DNA of 12,109 nucleotides from a virus. Taxonomy: Duplodnaviria; Heunggongvirae; Uroviricota; Caudoviricetes. The stretch is taken from the IMG/VR virus record IMGVR_UViG_2531839476_000007, positions 1 to 12,109 of that record; one strand, written 5' to 3'. The position numbers were made by a program, and so were the translations under genes. Under the pieces are notes generated by a model that was given only the letters and a program-made list of their open reading frames with translations, had not been told where the DNA came from and searched no databases. Shown piece after piece: positions 1 to 12,109 of this stretch (position 1 is its first letter; the number at the start of each line of letters is the position of its first letter).

Positions 1-149
1 ACAAAATCTATAACCATGAATTAATTCATTCACAAGACCTGATCATGCTGCGGTCTGGTGAATTTTCTAAATCGCCTATTCGAGTTTCATTTTGCCCGTT
101 CTGTGGTGAAAGTCTGAAAACGTGGGAAGCGGAGGCAACCAGTGAATAA
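1..149 (+). CDS. 3' end of an upstream gene, 5'-truncated by the window edge; hypothetical protein with a C-terminal CxxC pair
   Basis: Frame 3 is open from the window start to TAA at 147-149 (…MLRSGEFSKSPIRVSFCPFCGESLKTWEAEATSE). Its stop overlaps the GTG start of the next ORF (GTGAATAA), typical of coupled phage genes. Not in the ORF track because it is short and partial. Confidence 0.3.
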   Translation, partial: KIYNHELIHSQDLIMLRSGEFSKSPIRVSFCPFCGESLKTWEAEATSE

Positions 150-786
150 CCGCTTTTACATGATGTGCTTGCGTGAAACTGTGGGTAATAACGCCTCATT
201 CCATTGCCATAACGGCAATGGTTACAGTTCTGATATCGATCGCGCTCATGTTTACACGCTGGAAGAAGCCCAAAAAGCCTGGAATTGTGGACGAGATATC
301 GATCAGCCTGTTTGCGCTGATAGCGTGGATGCAATGGCTGTGTGGCACGTTGATTGCCAGTACATCCCCACAGAAAGCCTGATTGAGTCAGATTGCACTG
401 CGTATGTGGCCTACAAAAAAGGTAGCTGGAACGGCAACGATGTTTACTGGCTTCAACACGGTGGATTGCCAACAGATGACTTCAGTAAAGCGACCATCTT
501 TAGCGTCGCCAACAAAAACGAACCAGGAATAGTTTGGTTGCCATTTTCCATTGCTGATGCAGCAAAGCGTCGGACGTTCAATATCAATAACTTTAACCGC
601 AGAACAATGGTTCAGGGCGCAGGTTTGGTCATGCCTGACTGGTTGAAAGAGCAGAACAGAAGAAAGAAGTCGCGAAGCGGGAAGGTGCGTTGGAATTGTC
701 CGCATTGCGGAAAAATAACCTGGCAGTACAGCCCATATGATTTTGAAGGCTGTAGTGATTACAACTGTGAAGGATGGCGAGAATGA
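142..786 (+). CDS. hypothetical phage protein, 214 aa, with a C-terminal Cys cluster (CPHCGK…CSDYNCEGW)
   Basis: ORF-track ORF. GTG start at 142 is preceded by GGAGG at 131-135 (6-nt spacing); ATGs at 160/163 are alternatives. No family recognised. Confidence 0.55.
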   Translation: MNNRFYMMCLRETVGNNASFHCHNGNGYSSDIDRAHVYTLEEAQKAWNCGRDIDQPVCADSVDAMAVWHVDCQYIPTESLIESDCTAYVAYKKGSWNGNDVYWLQHGGLPTDDFSKATIFSVANKNEPGIVWLPFSIADAAKRRTFNINNFNRRTMVQGAGLVMPDWLKEQNRRKKSRSGKVRWNCPHCGKITWQYSPYDFEGCSDYNCEGWRE

Positions 787-1529
787 CAATTGACTATCAG
801 GCACTGCGTGAGGCGGCAGAGCGTGCAATTCCGGCAATGGAACACCTGTTAATGTTGCCAGTTGATGATGATTTGTTAACTGAACAGGAACTTAAGGATT
901 ACGGTGTGGATATTGATGCGCTCAACGCCTTCAAATTTCTGACCGGACCAGAAACCGTGCTGGCACTACTGGATGAACGGGAAAGAAACCAGCAATACAT
1001 CAAACGCCGCGACCAGGAGAACGAGGATATTGCGCTAACGGTTGGGAGGCTGCTAATCGAAAACGGCCAGCTTGTTGCCGATACGCTACGCCACTTAGCT
1101 GATAACGAAATCGACTCTGATTATTTTGCTATCACCTCAACGAATGAGAACGGTACTGAAATTGATCATGAGATGGCTATTACCGATTACGCACTGCAAG
1201 CTGCCGGAACTGTAGACGAATTGGTTGCAGCGCTGGAATCCGCAGAGAAGCGCATAGCAGAACTGGAAGCACGGGAAATAAAACCAGCCAAAGGCGAAGT
1301 TCTTGTCGTTGTATCTGGTTTTACTGGTTGCGGAAAAAGCGCCATTGCCGGGGAAATAGAAATCGCGATGAAGGCTATTGGTGTACCGGTTAAGTGGACT
1401 AATGGCGATGCAGAAAAGCGCATGACTGGCGCTGACTGGCTGACAGCGATTGAGATGTACAAACCAACTGTGCGCATCGCGGAAGTTAATGTGCCACGCG
1501 CCGCTGGCATTCGCATCAAAGGAGAGTGA
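783..1529 (+). CDS. hypothetical acidic/coiled-coil phage protein (about 248 aa) with a Walker-A-like GFTGCGKS motif near the C-terminus
   Basis: ORF-track ORF 774..1529; start is ATG 774 or ATG 783 (MTIDYQALREAAERA…). Overlaps the stop of the preceding ORF. P-loop-like motif is encoded around 1314-1340. Confidence 0.6.
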   Translation: MTIDYQALREAAERAIPAMEHLLMLPVDDDLLTEQELKDYGVDIDALNAFKFLTGPETVLALLDERERNQQYIKRRDQENEDIALTVGRLLIENGQLVADTLRHLADNEIDSDYFAITSTNENGTEIDHEMAITDYALQAAGTVDELVAALESAEKRIAELEAREIKPAKGEVLVVVSGFTGCGKSAIAGEIEIAMKAIGVPVKWTNGDAEKRMTGADWLTAIEMYKPTVRIAEVNVPRAAGIRIKGE

Positions 1530-1534
1530 GTGAT

Positions 1535-1732
1535 ATGGATAAAAACACCACTGCTTACTGGAATCTGTCACTTGATACCGAATGCCCCAAATGTGGTCAC
1601 AATTTCGATCTGCTCTGTGATGCTGATTTCTGGGAGTTTTCTGGAGCAAAACAGGCATGTGAAGAAATAAAAGGTTACGAAACATGCTGCCCAGAATGTA
1701 ACCATGAATTTAAAACAGATTTTGTGTATTGA
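1535..1732 (+). CDS. small Cys-rich zinc-ribbon-like protein, about 65 aa (CPKCGH … CCPECNH)
   Basis: ORF-track ORF 1526..1732. ATG at 1535 sits 8 nt after GGAGAG (1521-1526); the GTG at 1526 overlaps the previous stop. Two CxxC pairs about 40 residues apart. Confidence 0.55.
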   Translation: MDKNTTAYWNLSLDTECPKCGHNFDLLCDADFWEFSGAKQACEEIKGYETCCPECNHEFKTDFVY

Positions 1733-1742
1733 GGCATAACGA

Positions 1743-2933
1743 ATGACCACTTTTACTAAAGAACAATTAATAGAGATAATTAAGCGCAATATAACGGTTA
1801 TGGATCGTTATCCTGATTTAGTAACTGCACAAATGGATCTGGAAGTATACAAAATCGCGCTGGCATCACTGGAAGCAGAACCAGTTGCTTATATTTTCAA
1901 ACATCCGGCCGGGAAATTATTCTGGGCTTTAACGGATGAAAGCAATAAAGAGCAACCGGACGTTATTCCTGTTTATGCTGACTCACCTGCGCCGGTTGTG
2001 CCGGATGAAATAGACGTAAACGATGTACCAAGGGCGGTGACATATTTCAAGACACACAGAGATTGTTACGCAGATGGCTGGAACGCCTGCCGCGCCGCCA
2101 TGCTTCAGTCCGGAAACTTTCGGGAAAATAAGAATTCGTCAACCAATAATTTTCGGGAAATCGCGGAAACGTCAACCAACTATCCGGTAATTCCTAGTGA
2201 GGTGTTGTCCGCAATCCTGAAGGTTGCCAAGATTCGTGCCGATTTCGATGATTTTGACGGTGACAGGCGAGGTATCGGTGATTGTCTGGATGAGGCTGAG
2301 CAAGAGCTTATCGTTACCATTAACAAATATGCCAGTCAGTTGGCAGCAGAACCGATAGCGACTAATGACGTTCGAGAGCAAACAGCCGTTCCGCCAGTTC
2401 CTGTAATACAGGCTGATGTCGCGCAGGCAATTGAAAAACTCAAACGGAAATTAGTGGAATGCAATCGCTATAACTACTGCGCAGATGCAGTTAAGGGCGT
2501 TGAGTATGCCTGCCACGCTGCCATGCTTCAGGGTAGCCAACCTGTAAGCCAAACTTACAAGTTTCCAGTTAATACACCTTGCCAGGATGCGCCAGCCCAT
2601 ATCTGGCTGCAAACAGCTGGAGTATGGCCAGAAGATGGCGAGTTAAGCGAATTAACGTGGTGCAGCCACAATCAGCACCATGATGACACGCTATATGTTC
2701 GAGCTGACTTGGTAAATGGCAATTCTCAGGTAACTCCGGATGGTTGGATAAGCTGTAGTGAGCGAATGCCCGCTCAAGATGATTGGATTTTAATTTATTC
2801 AAAGCACGGTGAGTATATGGCAGGACAGGTGCAAGGGGAATACGTGGAGTTGAGCGACGGCACTTTATCCTGGTTAGGGAACGCCTTGTTCTGGATGCTG
2901 CTACCAGAACCTCCCCAGGAGGCAGGTCAATGA
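1743..2933 (+). CDS. DUF551-type phage protein, 396 aa, with internal duplications
   Basis: ATG 1743 preceded by GAGG at 1731-1734. The C-terminus (WISCSERMPAQDDWILIY…FWMLLPEPPQ) resembles the DUF551 pattern recalled from enterobacterial prophage proteins (W…ER(L/M)P…W…(M/L)P(L/E)PP). Contains a 33-bp tandem duplication and a repeated AAMLQ motif. Confidence 0.7.
   Translation: MTTFTKEQLIEIIKRNITVMDRYPDLVTAQMDLEVYKIALASLEAEPVAYIFKHPAGKLFWALTDESNKEQPDVIPVYADSPAPVVPDEIDVNDVPRAVTYFKTHRDCYADGWNACRAAMLQSGNFRENKNSSTNNFREIAETSTNYPVIPSEVLSAILKVAKIRADFDDFDGDRRGIGDCLDEAEQELIVTINKYASQLAAEPIATNDVREQTAVPPVPVIQADVAQAIEKLKRKLVECNRYNYCADAVKGVEYACHAAMLQGSQPVSQTYKFPVNTPCQDAPAHIWLQTAGVWPEDGELSELTWCSHNQHHDDTLYVRADLVNGNSQVTPDGWISCSERMPAQDDWILIYSKHGEYMAGQVQGEYVELSDGTLSWLGNALFWMLLPEPPQEAGQ
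2118..2183 (+). repeat. in-frame imperfect 2 x 33-bp tandem duplication inside the DUF551 gene
   Basis: Unit 1 (2118-2150) tttcgggaaaataagaattcgtcaaccaataat and unit 2 (2151-2183) tttcgggaaatcgcggaaacgtcaaccaactat share 24/33 nt, including exact 10-mer and 9-mer blocks. They encode FRENKNSSTNN / FREIAETSTNY. Confidence 0.8.
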
Positions 2934-3013
2934 GCTGGCCTGAAGCATTCGCAACGGTAGGAATTGTGATGGCGGCAGCACTGGGTTTGTATTCAATTTG
3001 TCGCTGGTGGTAA
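2930..3013 (+). CDS. unlisted small hydrophobic peptide, 27 aa (MSWPEAFATVGIVMAAALGLYSICRWW)
   Basis: Perfect Shine-Dalgarno AGGAGG at 2917-2922, 7 nt before ATG 2930. The ATG overlaps the upstream TGA (ATGA) and the stop TAA 3011-3013 lies 2 nt before the next ATG. Predicted single transmembrane helix. Below the track's 60-aa cutoff. Confidence 0.45.
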   Translation: MSWPEAFATVGIVMAAALGLYSICRWW

Positions 3014-3015
3014 CG

Positions 3016-3249
3016 ATGAGGAAATTAACTTTTGTAGTCGAATTTGAGGATGGTAAAGAGCCACCTGTTAGCGCCAATCTTGATGTTGCTGGTGGAAGGC
3101 TTGTTTCGGTTCTATTTGGTGACTACCGAGATGACTTCTTCCAACCAGAAGAAGTTGATGTAGTGCGAGAGGCATTAAACGAGTTAAGTGTTGACAACGA
3201 TGATGCTCATGCGGAAATCATCCAAAAAATGGAACTGCTAACTCACTAA
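3016..3249 (+). CDS. hypothetical acidic protein, 77 aa
   Basis: ORF-track ORF 2998..3249 (TTG start); ATG 3016 (MRKLTFVVEF…) is more plausible and sits directly after the small ORF. No family recognised. Confidence 0.5.
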   Translation: MRKLTFVVEFEDGKEPPVSANLDVAGGRLVSVLFGDYRDDFFQPEEVDVVREALNELSVDNDDAHAEIIQKMELLTH

Positions 3250-3297
3250 ATTATCAATTATGGTGCTATAACCTACGACACCGAGAGAAAATTTATA

Positions 3298-3420
3298 ATG
3301 TCAAAAGTAAATGTTTTGATTTTTTCAGCAATTGTTGGCTTTGGTTTTACTGCCGGAGTGCAGATTTATATTACGTGGGAAAAAATCATCAACTACGCAT
3401 GGAGTTGTTTTATTAAGTGA
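3298..3420 (+). CDS. unlisted small membrane protein, 40 aa (MSKVNVLIFSAIVGFGFTAGVQIYITWEKIINYAWSCFIK)
   Basis: ATG 3298 to TGA 3418-3420. The stop overlaps the GAGG RBS of the next gene. An extended -10-like TGCTATAAC lies at 3264-3272 upstream. Hydrophobic N-terminal helix. RBS is weak (GAGAGA). Confidence 0.35.
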   Translation: MSKVNVLIFSAIVGFGFTAGVQIYITWEKIINYAWSCFIK

Positions 3421-3427
3421 GGTAAGT

Positions 3428-3721
3428 ATGTGGAGAGGTAATAATCATGGCAAAAGCCAGATGATACTTACCGAATATAAGCTAGACCACAAAACCAATA
3501 AATCACGCTCAGTATATTTGCTCCGGCACAATAGTCGCGTAAGAAATACCGTGCTGGAACAAAATCTGACAGTTGAAATGGATAATTACGGGGGATTCAA
3601 GCCAACAATTTCACTTGATGATTTTCCTCGTGGTTTAAGCGAAAGAGAAGCAATGCTGAAATTAGCAGAATGGCTACAAAGATTAAGCATTGCTATTGAA
3701 GATAACTGGTCTGAACCTTAA
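3428..3721 (+). CDS. hypothetical protein, about 97 aa
   Basis: In frame with track ORF 3332..3721. ATG 3428 is preceded by GAGG (3419-3422, 5-nt spacing). The track's upstream start at 3332 has no RBS and lies inside the small ORF. Confidence 0.5.
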   Translation: MWRGNNHGKSQMILTEYKLDHKTNKSRSVYLLRHNSRVRNTVLEQNLTVEMDNYGGFKPTISLDDFPRGLSEREAMLKLAEWLQRLSIAIEDNWSEP

Positions 3722-3727
3722 ATTTAT

Positions 3728-4102
3728 ATGATGACACTAAAACATTTTCTTGACCGCCCATTATGGGCGGCAGCCGCAGGCTATGACTTTAATTATATGG
3801 ATTGCATGTCTTATACCGCCAATGCATACGACCATTCCTTCAGTCTGCTGTTTAATTCTTTAAGAATATTGCCGCAAACAGAAGTTGGAGAGCTTCATTT
3901 ATGGCTATTGGGCTTTATCGCGGCTGTCGTTGGTATTGCTGTATGGCCTTTTATTTTCTGGCTGGTGGCTGTTGTAGTGTGGGTTAAGTGCAAGACATAC
4001 CGGAAAAAGTATTTCTTAGGTGATGGAATGACTGATATTGCCAAAATGAACATTGAAGAATGGACTAAGGAATGTGAAAAGAAATGGCGCAAAAAGAAAT
4101 GA
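3728..4102 (+). CDS. hypothetical membrane protein, 124 aa
   Basis: ORF-track ORF. Long hydrophobic segment LWLLGFIAAVVGIAVWPFIFWLVAVVVWV followed by a basic C-terminus (…KKWRKKK). The 3' end overlaps the next gene. Confidence 0.55.
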   Translation: MMTLKHFLDRPLWAAAAGYDFNYMDCMSYTANAYDHSFSLLFNSLRILPQTEVGELHLWLLGFIAAVVGIAVWPFIFWLVAVVVWVKCKTYRKKYFLGDGMTDIAKMNIEEWTKECEKKWRKKK

Positions 4103-4734
4103 CCAGAATCACTGAAGAGCGCATATCAGAGATTATTTCCCGTATCGAAATGTATGGTCACGGTGCTGGATATACGGCAGATGAAGTATTGGAAATAGCC
4201 CAGCAGATGCTGGCCTTGAGACAAAAAGAGCAACATGAAAGTAATACGTGTAGATTGAATTTTGAGCATTGGCTGGAACAGCAACGCGGGAAAATCGATG
4301 TGGACTGTGGTTGTGTGTCCACTGAAACATTCATGCACTGGCTGCGGGTAGCTTACGAGGCTGGCAACTATCCGGATATTCCGGATAGTTCGGTGCCAGC
4401 ACCAGGAAAGGGCGTCACCGGTGAACGTATCCGAATTAAGCCGCATGTTTATCGCGAACTGGTTAACCGTCTCCACGATACAGCGATCAAGTGTGCTGGC
4501 ACCCAGCAATTACGAGAAAGAATTAGCCGTGTTTTGGGCGACGTTATTACACCAGATCATCATAAACAAGCCGAGAAAAGTGGCCTGGAAAGGTGTCGCC
4601 TTGAGGCGGCATTAAACATTAAGCCGGGGCATACGCTTGGCATTATTGATGCACTATTGGTTCATAAGATGGCCAGGGCTTTATTGCCGCTGGTGGCTGA
4701 AAAGCATGAGGTGGACCATGCCAACGAAAGCTGA
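4084..4734 (+). CDS. hypothetical soluble phage protein, 216 aa
   Basis: ORF-track ORF. Start ATG 4084 overlaps the previous gene (alternative ATG 4099). No family recognised. Confidence 0.55.
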   Translation: MAQKEMTRITEERISEIISRIEMYGHGAGYTADEVLEIAQQMLALRQKEQHESNTCRLNFEHWLEQQRGKIDVDCGCVSTETFMHWLRVAYEAGNYPDIPDSSVPAPGKGVTGERIRIKPHVYRELVNRLHDTAIKCAGTQQLRERISRVLGDVITPDHHKQAEKSGLERCRLEAALNIKPGHTLGIIDALLVHKMARALLPLVAEKHEVDHANES

Positions 4735-5002
4735 ATTACAGGTGCGCGTAGATGAGCTTGAAAAAGAGAACGCGAGCCTCAAAAAAATGCTGTCGCGGGC
4801 GGAAAGGGAATTATCAGGCAAATTATTGCCAGAAGAACTGCCACCAGCAGATATACCTGATCGAGTGTCCTGGTGGATGAAGTATTTCCGTGCACCGTGG
4901 GAGGCGTTTTGGTGCTACGACCATCGCAGATGGTGTGATGAACTTGATAGCAATTTTCCCTACTTTGCGGAAGGGAACACCTGCCCTCAATGCAGGGGAT
5001 AG
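4718..5002 (+). CDS. hypothetical protein, about 94 aa, coiled-coil N-terminus and C-terminal CPQCRG
   Basis: In frame with track ORF 4637..5002. ATG 4718 is preceded by GAGGTGG (4708-4714) and overlaps the end of the previous gene. Last gene of the left-hand + strand block. Confidence 0.5.
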   Translation: MPTKAELQVRVDELEKENASLKKMLSRAERELSGKLLPEELPPADIPDRVSWWMKYFRAPWEAFWCYDHRRWCDELDSNFPYFAEGNTCPQCRG

Positions 5003-5337
5003 CATTTGACGAAATCGATCACCCTATCCTGAACTTCAGAAAGAAGGTCTTTTTCACGCGCCAGGACGTCAGGATATTGACGTTCTGGCCTTACCAGATG
5101 CCGGAGCTTCCCATTAAGCAGAATGGCCTCAGAAAACACTTTTACGCTGTGCTTTATCCCCTCTGTTTCACTTTTCAGCGTCAAAATAAAGCGCAATTGC
5201 TTATTAGCCTGATTCGGATTCAATACACGAATTTGCAGTTCGTCTATGCTGTTCCGCAATGGGATTGATGCCACCACACTGGTGCAGTCTCTGATTGTCT
5301 GAATTGAACGGCTAACATTGAGAACGTTATTGTGCAT
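4987..5337 (-). CDS. doubtful antisense ORF, 116 aa, in the gap between the left gene block and hot
   Basis: Only long ORF covering the 367-bp gap 5003-5369, but there is no convincing RBS (AGGAG lies about 14 nt upstream of the ATG) and no recognisable family. A + strand ORF 4990..5268 competes for the same DNA. Confidence 0.2.
   Translation of the reverse strand: MHNNVLNVSRSIQTIRDCTSVVASIPLRNSIDELQIRVLNPNQANKQLRFILTLKSETEGIKHSVKVFSEAILLNGKLRHLVRPERQYPDVLAREKDLLSEVQDRVIDFVKCYPLH
5060..5089. repeat. 12-bp-stem inverted repeat (hairpin) centred on GACGTC
   Basis: gccaggacgtca (5060-5071) / ggatat loop / tgacgttctggc (5078-5089); 11 Watson-Crick pairs plus one G-T. Lies 58 nt after the stop at 5002. 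No adjacent U-tract on either strand. Confidence 0.5.
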
Positions 5338-5369
5338 GTGCCTGATCCACTAACTCCTGGAGGTTTCTT

Positions 5370-5621
5370 GTGTCAGATCGAAATATAGCAGCTAAAAGCC
5401 AGGAAGAGCGAGACAAGGTGAACGTAGACCTTGCCGCCAGCGGCGTTGCTTACAAAGAACGGCTGAATATACCTGTGATTGCAGAGCAGGTGGCCCGTGA
5501 GCAACCGGAAAACCTGCGCGCCTATTTCATGGAACGGCTACGGCACTACCGGCAGTTAAGCCTCCAGTTGCCAAAAGGGAGCGATCCGGTGTATCAGAAC
5601 GAGGATGCACCAAAAAAATAA
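5370..5621 (+). CDS. hot: Hot, homolog of the DNA polymerase III theta subunit (HolE), 83 aa
   Basis: GTG 5370 is preceded by GGAGG (5359-5363). The core [43 protein letters not shown] matches my recollection of E. coli theta ([43 protein letters not shown]). Position before humD fits the P1 gene order. Confidence 0.8.
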
Positions 5622-5680
5622 CGGCAAGATGGGGGAGAAATGTGATTAGCCCCCAGCGTGGCGCGCCTACAAACCCCGCT

Positions 5681-5726
5681 TTCACAAACTATGCCTTTTC
5701 AATGTATACTGTATGAATAAACAGTA
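5681..5726 (+). promoter_or_regulatory. SOS-type promoter with a LexA box overlapping the -10, upstream of humD
   Basis: -35 TTCACA (5681-5686), -10 TATACT (5705-5710), and TACTGTATGAATAAACAGTA (5707-5726), which fits the LexA consensus TACTG-N10-CAGTA. RBS GAGG 5732-5735 and ATG 5745 follow. Confidence 0.8.
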
Positions 5727-5744
5727 TCATTGAGGTAAAACGCT

Positions 5745-6134
5745 ATGGGCTTCCCTTCTCCTGCGGCGGATTATGTTGAAAGCCGAATTTCTCTTGATCA
5801 GCAGATAATTAGACATCCTTCAGCGACCTACTTCATGCGGGCAGCTGATAGCCATCACCGTGAGGGAATATTGCAGGGTGCTTTGCTGGTGGTTGATTCC
5901 TCGCTTACTCCGGTTGATGGTTCTCTGCTTGTGTGCGCTATGGAGGGTGAATATCGCATAAAGAGATACAGGAAGTATCCGCGCCAGCACCTGGAGGACT
6001 TAAGCACCGGGAAGAAAGAGGCGTTACCAGTAGATGACGATGGATACACGGGCAGTAATGCTGTTTTTGGTGTGATCACTCATGTCATCAATGATGCCCG
6101 AAGTGGGGAATTTGATGATTGTCCGGTTATTTAA
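5745..6134 (+). CDS. humD: HumD, a UmuD'-like S24-family protein lacking the UmuD N-terminal pro-segment, 129 aa
   Basis: Begins MGFPSPAADYVE…, aligning with UmuD residues just after its Cys24-Gly25 self-cleavage site (…CG/FPSPAADYVE). Ser in ADSH and Lys in YRIKRYRK align with the UmuD Ser/Lys dyad. An in-frame TAA at 5736-5738 rules out a longer N-terminus. Confidence 0.85.
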   Translation: MGFPSPAADYVESRISLDQQIIRHPSATYFMRAADSHHREGILQGALLVVDSSLTPVDGSLLVCAMEGEYRIKRYRKYPRQHLEDLSTGKKEALPVDDDGYTGSNAVFGVITHVINDARSGEFDDCPVI

Positions 6135-6169
6135 GCTGCAAAGTGCTGGTGCTTTATGCCTGTGAAGTT

Positions 6170-6198
6170 TATAATTGTGTACACATAACGAGTACACG
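6170..6198 (+). promoter_or_regulatory. phd-doc promoter -10 and two palindromic operator half-site pairs
   Basis: Perfect -10 TATAAT (6170-6175), then perfect 10-bp palindrome TGTGTACACA (6176-6185) and imperfect palindrome CGAGTACACG (6189-6198, 8/10), centres 13 bp apart. This is the arrangement expected for Phd autorepression. Confidence 0.6.
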
Positions 6199-6206
6199 AG
6201 GTGTTT

Positions 6207-6428
6207 ATGCAATCCATTAACTTCCGTACCGCGCGTGGCAACCTTTCTGAAGTGCTCAACAATGTTGAAGCCGGGGAAGAGGTTGAAATCACCCGCAGAG
6301 GCCGTGAGCCAGCAGTAATTGTCAGCAAGGCTACTTTCGAAGCCTACAAAAAAGCGGCGCTGGATGCTGAATTTGCATCCCTGTTTGACACCCTGGACTC
6401 CACCAACAAGGAACTGGTTAACCGATAA
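6207..6428 (+). CDS. phd: Phd antitoxin (prevent host death), 73 aa
   Basis: [73 protein letters not shown] matches my recollection of P1 Phd. Stop TAA overlaps the doc ATG (TAATG at 6426-6430). Confidence 0.92.
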
Positions 6429-6808
6429 TGAGACATATATCACCGGAAGAACTTGTTGCGCTTCATGATGCGAATATAAGCCGCTACGGCGGCCTGCCGG
6501 GAATGTCTGATCCGGGTAGGGCAGAGGCCATTATCGGGAGAGTTCAGGCCAGAGTTGCCTACGAAGAGATCACCGACCTTTTCGAAGTCTCCGCCACCTA
6601 CCTGGTGGCTACAGCGAGAGGGCATATATTCAATGATGCCAATAAGCGTACCGCGCTAAACAGTGCGCTGCTATTTCTACGCCGTAACGGGGTGCAGGTA
6701 TTTGATTCACCTGAACTGGCAGACCTTACCGTAGGCGCTGCGACTGGCGAGATATCTGTATCTTCTGTCGCCGACACGTTACGTAGATTGTATGGTTCTG
6801 CGGAGTAG
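6428..6808 (+). CDS. doc: Doc toxin (death on curing), Fic-fold kinase, 126 aa
   Basis: [39 protein letters not shown]… matches recalled P1 Doc and contains the Fic-type motif HIFNDANKR. Translationally coupled to phd. Confidence 0.92.
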
Positions 6809-6812
6809 ATTA

Positions 6813-6992
6813 ATGGCACGTAAATACAACAAGTTGTCCCGTGAAGCGTTAAAGATGCTTCTTGATGGCGTGAGCCGCCGCAAGGTAAAGCAATACCTGG
6901 TTGGTAAGCAAATTGGAGTCAGGACCGCTATTGCTGTGTTATGCCGTCAGGAAATGGTTGTGCTTAAACAGAGAATGCCGGGCAGCAGATAA
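6813..6992 (+). CDS. pdcA: PdcA-like small basic protein (post-doc), about 59 aa
   Basis: ATG 6813 preceded by GGAG (6802-6805); in frame with track ORF 6792..6992. Named from its position directly after doc in the P1 gene order, not from sequence recognition. Confidence 0.45.
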   Translation: MARKYNKLSREALKMLLDGVSRRKVKQYLVGKQIGVRTAIAVLCRQEMVVLKQRMPGSR

Positions 6993-8690: not shown

Positions 8691-9884
8691 GTGACCTGGG
8701 ACGATCACAAGAAGAATTTTGCTCGCCTGGCGCGAGATGGTGGTTACACCATCGCACAGTATGCCGCCGAGTTTAATCTTAACCCTAATACCGCACGTCG
8801 TTATCTCCGTGCCTTCAAAGAAGACACCAGGACAGCGGACAGCCGCAAGCCAAATAAGCCAGTCAGGAAGCCTCTAAAAAGCATGATCATTGATCACGCT
8901 AATGATCAACGTGCATGTGATCACATTGTGGCTGAAATGGCTGAAAAACAAAGAGTTAATGCTGTTGTCAGTGCCGCAGTCGAGAACGCTAAGCGCCAAA
9001 ATAAGCGCATAAATGATCGTTCTGATGATCATGACGTGATCACCCGCGCCCACCGTACCTTACGTAATCGCCTGGAACGCGACACCCTGGATGATGATGG
9101 TGAACGCTTTGAATTCGAAGCTGGCGATTACCTGATAGATAACGTTGAAGCGCGGAAGGCCGCGCGCGCTATGTTGCGTCGGTCCGGGGCCGATGTTCTG
9201 GAAACCACTCTTCTGGAAAAGTCTCTTTCTCATCTCCTTATGCTGGAGAACGCCAGGGATACGTGTATTCGCCTGGTGCAGGAAATGCGCGATCAGCAAA
9301 AAGACGATGATGAAGGTACTCCGCCTGAATACCGTATCGCGAGCATGCTAAACAGCTGTTCCGCGCAGATAAGCAGCCTGATCAACACCATTTACAGCAT
9401 CCGGAATAACTATCGAAAAGAAAGCCGGGAGGCGGAAAAGCACGCTTTATCTATGGGGCAAGCTGGCATTGTTAAGCTGGCATACGAACGAAAGCGTGAA
9501 AATAACTGGTCAGTGCTGGAAGCGGCTGAATTCATCGAGGCGCATGGAGGAAAAGTGCCTCCCCTGATGCTGGAGCAAATCAAAGCCGATCTGCGTGCTC
9601 CTAAGACCAATACCGATGATGAGGAAAACCAAACAGCATCTGGCGCTCCATCACTTGAAGATCTGGATAAAATCGCGCGAGAACGGGCCGCCAGCCGCCG
9701 CGCTGATGCCGCATTGTGGATTGAGCATCGTAGAGAAGAAATTGCCGATATCGTCGATACAGGTGGTTATGGTGATGTCGATGCGGAAGGCATATCAAAC
9801 GAAGCATGGCTTGAACAGGATCTGGACGAAGACGAGGAGGAAGACGAAGAAGTTACCCGCAAACTGTACGGGGATGATGATTAA
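8691..9884 (+). CDS. pacA: PacA, small terminase / pac-site recognition subunit, 397 aa
   Basis: GTG 8691 with RBS AAGGAAG (8680-8686). Begins [28 protein letters not shown]… and contains the pac hexamer clusters within its 5' third, as described for P1 pacA. Stop overlaps the pacB ATG (TAATG at 9882-9886). Confidence 0.88.
8884..9042 (+). other. pac packaging site: 4 + 3 TGATC(A/G) hexamers, each carrying a GATC Dam site
   Basis: Left cluster TGATCA at 8884-8889, 8891-8896, 8903-8908, 8918-8923. Right cluster TGATCG 9014-9019 and TGATCA 9026-9031, 9037-9042. Span of about 160 bp inside pacA matches the recalled architecture of the P1 pac site. Confidence 0.8.
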
Positions 9885-11418: not shown

Positions 11419-12109
11419 TTACTGGCTGCCCCTTCTTAGTTTTACGGCTGCGCGTAACTGATGCGGCTGATTTGACCTTTTTCTCTTCGCGAGTGATGGC
11501 AATTGTTTTTTTACATTTTCAATATCTGCCAGGCGATATATTTTTGCCTGCGGCCAGCGGTCGCAGATGATCGGTTCTATAGAGTCATAAAGGCTAAATT
11601 TTGCTTTCTCGAATTCACCGTTGATGATGATTCCATCACGGAGAGTTTCATCGCAGATAAACACACCACACAGCGGCACATGGTAACTAACTGATTTACC
11701 ATCATTGTAGTTAGGGCTACTGGAAATGTAATGGACGCGCAGCATTGTTTCGCTAAAGCCGTGTACACGCATACGGAATTTTTCATCCTCCGGGTACTGC
11801 TTCATTAGCTCTTTTGTTGCTTCCAGGTTCTCTATGTATTTCGCACTGTGCTCATTGATCCCCGCGCTTTTCTGGATGCGAATGTCCTTATCAATCAGAT
11901 GAATAATGCGGCCAGCGGTCATGTTGACGCTGTTCACAGCTTCTGTCTGATAAGTTGTAACCTTACGCACACCGCGAAGGATGTTAGGCACTGGATATAA
12001 AATAGTCTTTGGGATATTGAGGTCTGGGTACTGTTCCAGTTCTCGCGCCATTAAAGTCCATTTATCAATTTCAGCCTGAATGCTGTCCGTTTCTTTGAAC
12101 GGCAGAACG
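11419..12109 (-). CDS. c1: c1 immunity repressor, 3' portion only; the 5' end lies beyond the window
   Basis: The - strand frame is open from the window edge (…VLPFKETDSIQAEIDKWTLMARELEQ…) to the stop at 11419-11421, so the track's 210-aa ORF is an N-terminally truncated view. Convergent with pacB, as in the P1 map. Sequence recognition is partial. Confidence 0.65.
   Translation of the reverse strand, partial: VLPFKETDSIQAEIDKWTLMARELEQYPDLNIPKTILYPVPNILRGVRKVTTYQTEAVNSVNMTAGRIIHLIDKDIRIQKSAGINEHSAKYIENLEATKELMKQYPEDEKFRMRVHGFSETMLRVHYISSSPNYNDGKSVSYHVPLCGVFICDETLRDGIIINGEFEKAKFSLYDSIEPIICDRWPQAKIYRLADIENVKKQLPSLAKRKRSNQPHQLRAAVKLRRGSQ

Follow-up and report, generated by a model that had tools for sequence, protein, structure and literature searches.

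humD of a P1-like phage-plasmid very probably encodes a LexA-controlled, ready-made UmuD′ analogue

UmuD is a protein of 139 residues whose N-terminal 24 residues are removed, with Cys24 at the cleavage site and S60 and K97 as active-site residues (PMC5342242). Phage P1 carries a homologue, HumD, whose gene is annotated in the P1 RefSeq record as 'DNA repair; functionally complements E. coli UmuD'' and whose product is given there as 69% identical to N15 gp26. A passage of PMC7092418 cites McLenigan et al. 1999 (J Bacteriol 181:7005) for a genuine UmuD′-like complementation by HumD. The genes humD-phd-doc are described as a cluster common to P1-like phage-plasmids, in which humD is called LexA-regulated (PMC9603915).

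We analyzed a humD locus in a stretch of DNA of 12,109 nucleotides, the whole of which is referred to as the window (Table 1). The gene order hot, humD, phd, doc, pdcA, pdcB (DUF968), lpa, pacA, pacB and the start of c1, together with the Pfam matches and the identity to RCS47 and P1, identifies the source of the window as a P1-like phage-plasmid (Punavirus). DNA comparison of positions 5400-6900 revealed 98.6% identity to Escherichia phage RCS47 and 95.5% identity to P1, the latter split into two pieces; the closest relatives of this phage-plasmid are RCS47, SJ46 and vB_EcoM-813R1.

Table 1. Features of the humD locus and of related loci. Positions are those of the window unless a locus or phage is named.
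Feature	Position	Strand	Basis or remark
Ead/Ea22-like gene	774-1529		within left 5 kb
DUF551 gene	1743-2933		within left 5 kb
116-aa ORF without family	4987-5337	-	RCS47 annotation: conserved unknown
hot, DNA polymerase III theta subunit homologue, upstream neighbour of humD	5370-5621	+	Pfam DNA_pol3_theta 2.8e-33; P1, RCS47 annotation
Putative sigma-70-like humD promoter (TTCACA, 18-nt spacer, TATACT; 10/12 consensus matches)	5681-5710	+	consensus match
LexA (SOS) box TACTGTATGAATAAACAGTA, overlapping the -10 hexamer, 19 nt before the ATG	5707-5726	+	sequence match; P1 annotation
Ribosome-binding site GAGG, suitable for humD	5732-5735	+	direct sequence reading
In-frame stop TAA, directly after GAGG and two codons before the ATG	5736-5738	+	direct sequence reading
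humD coding sequence, 129 codons + TAA	5745-6134	+	
Ser36 (AGC), aligned to UmuD Ser60	5850-5852	+	
Lys73 (AAG), aligned to UmuD Lys97	5961-5963	+	
Acidic C-terminal tail SGEFDDCPVI (codons 120-129), family-specific, not in UmuD	6102-6131	+	family alignment
phd, antitoxin-toxin operon with doc	6207-6428	+	Pfam PhdYeFM 3e-13; P1, RCS47 annotation
doc, toxin-antitoxin operon with phd	6428-6808	+	Pfam Fic/DOC 7e-9; P1, RCS47 annotation
c1, C1 repressor gene, residues 46 onwards, running off the right window end	11419-12109	-	
DinI homologue beside humD-type gene	5439-5681 (loci L003-L006); ~5676-5918 (L007-L010)	-	prophage loci
LexA box of the umuDC-like operon of Cronobacter phage ENT39118	852-867 (locus L016)		

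The humD product, which begins MGFPSPAADYVE, is identical to P1 HumD at 127/129 positions (98%), with the two substitutions I21/L and G103/C; it is also 127/129 identical to HumD of RCS47 and 100% identical to that of phage vB_EcoM-813R1. Against the NCBIfam equivalog NF051876 ('HumD family translesion DNA polymerase') it scores 220.3 bits (cut-off 120, 5.8e-66) with all of the 129 model positions (1-129) covered, and the score of HumD against the canonical UmuD model NF007621 ('Pol V autoproteolytic subunit') is 87 bits, below the cut-off of 110. Pfam Peptidase_S24 (PF00717) is found with 35.9 bits (cut-off 23.3, 6.8e-9). A phmmer search of PDB sequences placed UmuD′ first (1umu_A, E 4.5e-23), and an AF2 model built from a diverse alignment (mean pLDDT 74, core 80-86) retrieved with Foldseek the UmuD′ entries 1UMU and 1AY9, followed by the C-terminal domains of LexA and lambda repressor. 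Judged from these comparisons, the similarity between HumD and UmuD is far beyond chance. Some databases name homologues LexA-like repressors; we rejected this reading because the S24 domain stands alone, without a DNA-binding domain.

HumD Gly2 aligns to residue 1 of UmuD′, which is Gly25 of full-length UmuD (8gmt_B 25-136). The preliminary description had placed the HumD start at the first residue after the UmuD self-cleavage site, and the alignment to UmuD confirms that the N-terminus corresponds to the UmuD′ start, immediately after the Cys24|Gly25 bond, and that the dyad residues are not lost. The in-frame TAA upstream of the ATG blocks any extension, so that a longer product or a translated N-terminal arm is excluded. 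A search for a vestige of the UmuD arm in the three frames of positions 5622-5744 found stops in all of them and no resemblance to the arm. The same start recurs in the family: a Met directly before G-FPSP is the annotated start in 103/120 of the homologues listed (66-97% identical over full-length matches), and the longer proteins among those listed have a miscalled upstream start with the same internal M-G-FPSP. Among the 39 pre-cleaved representatives of the wider comparison described below, 38 start with this Met. The scissile Ala/Cys-Gly bond and removable N-terminal segment of the S24 family are absent from HumD, where the initiator Met alone precedes the Gly. HumD, as its residues predict, is an S24-family derivative unable to self-cleave.

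The putative humD promoter, which RCS47 conserves and P1 conserves for the most part, is the sole promoter-like site found in positions 5300-6900. The LexA core CTGT-N8-ACAG (CTGTATGAATAAACAG, 5709-5724) is the single perfect match in the 12.1-kb window, with 0.11 expected by chance, and alignment shows the box conserved in P1 and RCS47. In the P1 RefSeq record the homologous site is the 'LexA binding site in the regulatory region of lxr and humD'. The lxr gene (573 bp, LexA-regulated, opposite strand) separates hot and humD in P1 (3229-3975 region) and is missing here and in RCS47; the hot-humD gap of the window is 123 bp (5622-5744), and the LexA box within it would serve humD alone. As the LexA box is retained, SOS transcriptional control would be kept and only the post-translational step, RecA-dependent cleavage, dropped. 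The earlier proposal that HumD needs no RecA-mediated processing thus stands for the cleavage step, but the gene itself is still behind a LexA box. A UmuD′2C-type complex still requires RecA*/ATP for activation (Pol V).

Downstream, humD is followed by the phd-doc toxin-antitoxin operon, which is a neighbour outside humD function. The phd promoter/operator region (6147-6200) begins 13 nt past the humD stop. Since no terminator-like site is predicted between the humD stop and phd, some transcription from the SOS-controlled humD promoter may conceivably continue into phd-doc. None of the window ORFs matches the Y-family polymerase (IMS) domain, which agrees with the earlier observation that phd-doc follows directly and that no umuC-like partner is encoded. 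Two further expectations drawn from this arrangement, that HumD relies on host UmuC and that the phage thereby modulates host translesion synthesis, are in line with the published description of P1 HumD, and the window holds no polymerase subunit of the phage.

Positions 1-5340 have no match to the pmgT-upfO region of P1 and form a mosaic partly common to SJ46, RCS47, lambdoid and Stx phages, with 512 phage records matching portions of it; several ORFs without family also lie there. The P1 pac site is found inside pacA (8884-8923, 9014-9042) as four TGATCA and three TGATC[GA] hexamers flanking ~90 bp, and TGATCR is over-represented in the window as a whole (33 found, 15 expected). The C1 protein of the window is nearly identical to P1 C1 until about residue 247; its last ~27 residues are unrelated and it ends earlier.

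We examined 17 related loci for the neighbourhood of humD. A umuC-type polymerase gene (IMS) was sought beside humD in the window, P1, RCS47, N15, a Hafnia phage and 12 prophage loci, and none was found. Every pre-cleaved gene examined has a LexA box, or a variant with one mismatch, just upstream and no polymerase partner, and these genes usually occupy a moron-like position. The products of those in N15 (gp26), the Hafnia phage and the Citrobacter, Salmonella and E. coli prophages begin M-G-FPSP, like that of the window. Perfect LexA boxes with the same spacing as in the window precede the humD-type genes of N15, the Hafnia phage and an E. coli prophage. The surroundings vary: N15 gp26 lies after a tail fibre gene and adjoins sopBA, the gene of Hafnia phage Pocitis76 lies between gtr genes and an integrase, and that of the E. 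coli prophage follows a tailspike gene and has TACTGTATTTTTATACAGTA upstream. Intact ORFs of 125-130 aa with 44-75% identity were found in phages and prophages of Escherichia, Salmonella, Citrobacter, Enterobacter, Klebsiella and Hafnia. The arm-bearing UmuD of Cronobacter phage ENT39118 overlaps its polymerase gene.

A gene for an 80-aa DinI homologue lies divergent to the humD-type gene in Citrobacter and Salmonella prophages; between the two are CTGG-N8-ACAG boxes, which deviate from the consensus by one mismatch. DinI inhibits RecA*-mediated UmuD cleavage, and its pairing with a pre-cleaved UmuD′ would therefore be coherent. The Citrobacter loci also contain an extra 80-aa ORF without a Pfam match (L003 5756-5998) immediately upstream of humD.

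HumD reaches 10 residues past the end of UmuD. The HumD clade shares the terminal pattern ND-x-R-x-x-E-F-D-D-x-P-[VCF]-[MIL]-COOH, which in the window reads NDARSGEFDDCPVI, and 90% or more of 116 close homologues share each of the tail residues E122, F123, D124, D125, C126, P127 and V128. The motif is kept at 40-50% identity (...EFDDTPF, ...EWDDLPVI, ...EFDEIPCI, ...EFHDNLPF); it occurs in 11/39 pre-cleaved representatives and in 1/47 scored arm-bearing representatives, the latter being a garbled HumD. AF2 confidence in the tail is low (mean pLDDT ~50 for residues 121-129, <50 for 126-129), as expected for a flexible peptide, and the tail is probably flexible.

The acidic C-terminal tip of SSB has the full sequence MDFDDDIPF. 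Its hexapeptide DDDIPF is named in a passage of PMC5872125 and its length of nine residues in a passage of PMC10018359, and access of translesion synthesis polymerases to the fork is governed by SSB-tip interactions, as in the case of Pol IV (PMC3401449). Over a span of eight residues, from [DE]-F-D-D to a hydrophobic C-terminus, the HumD tail and the SSB tip are alike, a likeness which is a resemblance only. From this resemblance it is conceivable, if doubtful, that the tail is a short linear motif mimicking the SSB tip. Were it so, HumD would bring its own docking peptide for SSB-interacting proteins (chi subunit, RecQ, ExoI, PriA, Pol IV and others) or would dock to an SSB-tip pocket on Pol V, and the HumD2-UmuC complex would gain access to the replication fork by a path not available to host UmuD′2C. 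The literature searched, which covered sources other than the primary HumD paper, contained no description of the HumD tail as an SSB-tip mimic.

We find it very likely that humD of this P1-like phage-plasmid encodes a LexA-controlled, ready-made UmuD′ analogue that pairs with host UmuC for translesion synthesis. The residue laid bare in UmuD by RecA*-stimulated self-cleavage is precisely where the humD frame opens, so that the protein would be born as a UmuD′ analogue. Host LexA, bound at the box overlapping the -10 element, would repress humD until the SOS response releases its transcription, and HumD would then bypass the slow RecA*-dependent cleavage step. After dimerising it would join host UmuC, its presumed partner because the phage encodes no polymerase subunit, to form a Pol V-like translesion polymerase, and the resulting HumD-UmuC enzyme may make the lysogen or infected cell more tolerant of damage and raise its mutagenesis. 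UmuD′ complementation is published for the 98%-identical P1 HumD and would extend to this protein. P1 HumD is also reported to dimerise and to bind UmuC and RecA filaments, and the same is expected here. Native expression of HumD is reportedly poor, and complementation is said to be best from a high-copy plasmid and weak at low copy number.

An ORF that lacks the first 24 umuD codons and has no umuC beside it could be a 5′-truncated pseudogene remnant of umuD or an artefact of gene calling. The chance of this is negligible: the M-G-FPSP start in 103/120 homologues listed and 38/39 pre-cleaved representatives, the intact 125-130-aa ORFs at 44-75% identity across the enterobacterial phages and prophages named above, the putative promoter, LexA box and ribosome-binding site that humD has of its own, and a curated equivalog model all speak against it, as does the published function of P1 HumD. 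Conservation, regulatory signals and published complementation effectively refute it. HumD could otherwise be mainly a modulator or inhibitor rather than a polymerase subunit, its complementation being a side effect of overexpression. Through RecA filament binding, heterodimers with host UmuD/UmuD′ or the conserved acidic C-terminal tail, it would damp recombination or SOS, or redirect replisome partners for the benefit of the phage. The strong conservation of a tail missing in UmuD suggests an additional partner, and the divergent DinI homologue (a RecA modulator) in Salmonella and Citrobacter prophages, the adjoining hot gene (Pol III theta homologue) in P1-like phages and the reportedly weak low-copy complementation by P1 HumD point the same way. 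A genuine UmuD′-like complementation has nevertheless been published, according to the RefSeq note and the passage of PMC7092418, the HumD core is ~45% identical to UmuD′, and nothing in the present data supports inhibition; we consider a mainly modulatory role improbable.

The Ser/Lys dyad raises the alternative that HumD is still a protease, which in HumD/UmuD heterodimers would cleave the arm of host UmuD in trans and activate the host protein faster. Ser36 and Lys73 occupy the aligned positions, and trans cleavage by an arm-truncated UmuD, acting on the arm of a UmuD S60A partner, has been described (PMC5342242). The preliminary description held that HumD keeps the dyad context; the two residues are indeed in place, but their surroundings are poorly kept, as phmmer aligns A-(gap)-D-S-H of HumD to S-G-D-S-M of UmuD, a degraded GDSM context with a one-residue deletion. 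Among 116 close homologues, the Ser36 position is Ser in 75, Thr in 40 and Ala in 1, and the position of UmuD Met61 is His in 107. To compare more distant proteins, we used an exhaustive phmmer search over 50%-identity cluster representatives (3427 relatives) and aligned the best-scoring ones of 105-200 aa. Among these best-scoring relatives, Ser is kept by 5 of the 39 pre-cleaved representatives, Lys by 13 (15 have Arg) and the pair by 2; of the 47 arm-bearing ones, 40 have Ser, 42 have Lys and 39 have both (2/39 vs 39/47, Fisher p = 4e-14). These counts include some metagenomic predictions that contain errors, and the alignment near the one-residue gap is uncertain. The loss of the pair in 37/39 pre-cleaved representatives indicates that the dyad is not under selection in this lineage: as these alignments suggest, the protease dyad decays once the arm is gone, and Ser36/Lys73 in P1-type HumD are probably vestigial and no longer a protease dyad. 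This decay counts against cleavage of host UmuD in trans, which we regard as highly improbable.

The reading of HumD as a pre-activated UmuD′ is supported, yet P1 HumD was named and tested experimentally as such by McLenigan et al. in 1999, the reading is now part of RefSeq and NCBIfam annotation, and finding it again adds nothing new. What it would mean is that a temperate phage circumvents one of two safeguards on SOS mutagenesis, keeping LexA repression and dropping RecA*-dependent cleavage, while borrowing the polymerase subunit of its host. Of modest interest beyond this are the decay of the dyad, the DinI pairing, the SSB-tip-like tail and the family-wide lack of a polymerase partner together with an upstream LexA-type box.

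Compared with known systems, the locus is nearest to P1 HumD (P1 gp103, YP_006569), with which it shares the start, the length, the C-terminal tail, the upstream LexA box and the immediately downstream phd-doc; it differs in the residues at positions 21 and 103 and in that P1 has the divergent lxr between hot and humD. N15 gp26 and the proteins of phiKO2, HK140, BTP1 and Pocitis76 are likewise pre-cleaved (125-129 aa) and share the conserved tail, and their genes sit in moron-like positions, 15-35 bp downstream of a LexA box, with none adjoining a polymerase gene; they are 44-69% identical, however, and are encoded in other neighbourhoods, after tail-fibre genes or beside sopAB or an integrase gene. 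The mucAB, rumAB, impAB and samAB operons and phage umuDC-like operons such as that of Cronobacter phage ENT39118 also encode UmuD homologues on mobile elements under LexA control; in contrast to humD, these homologues have retained the N-terminal arm together with the [CA]-G cleavage site and a G[DE]SM/Lys dyad, and are translationally coupled to a Y-family polymerase of their own. E. coli UmuD/UmuD′ (1UMU, 1AY9, 1I4V, 8GMT) has the same S24 peptidase fold, a nearly identical G-FPSPAADYVE-RI-L region and a Ser and Lys at the positions aligned to the HumD dyad. It differs in its 24-residue arm, which needs cleavage, whereas HumD is translated from the post-cleavage residue, and in having GDSM where HumD has A-DSH; relative to UmuD, HumD has a short insertion (~residues 100-103) and the additional tail, and is encoded without umuC in its operon.
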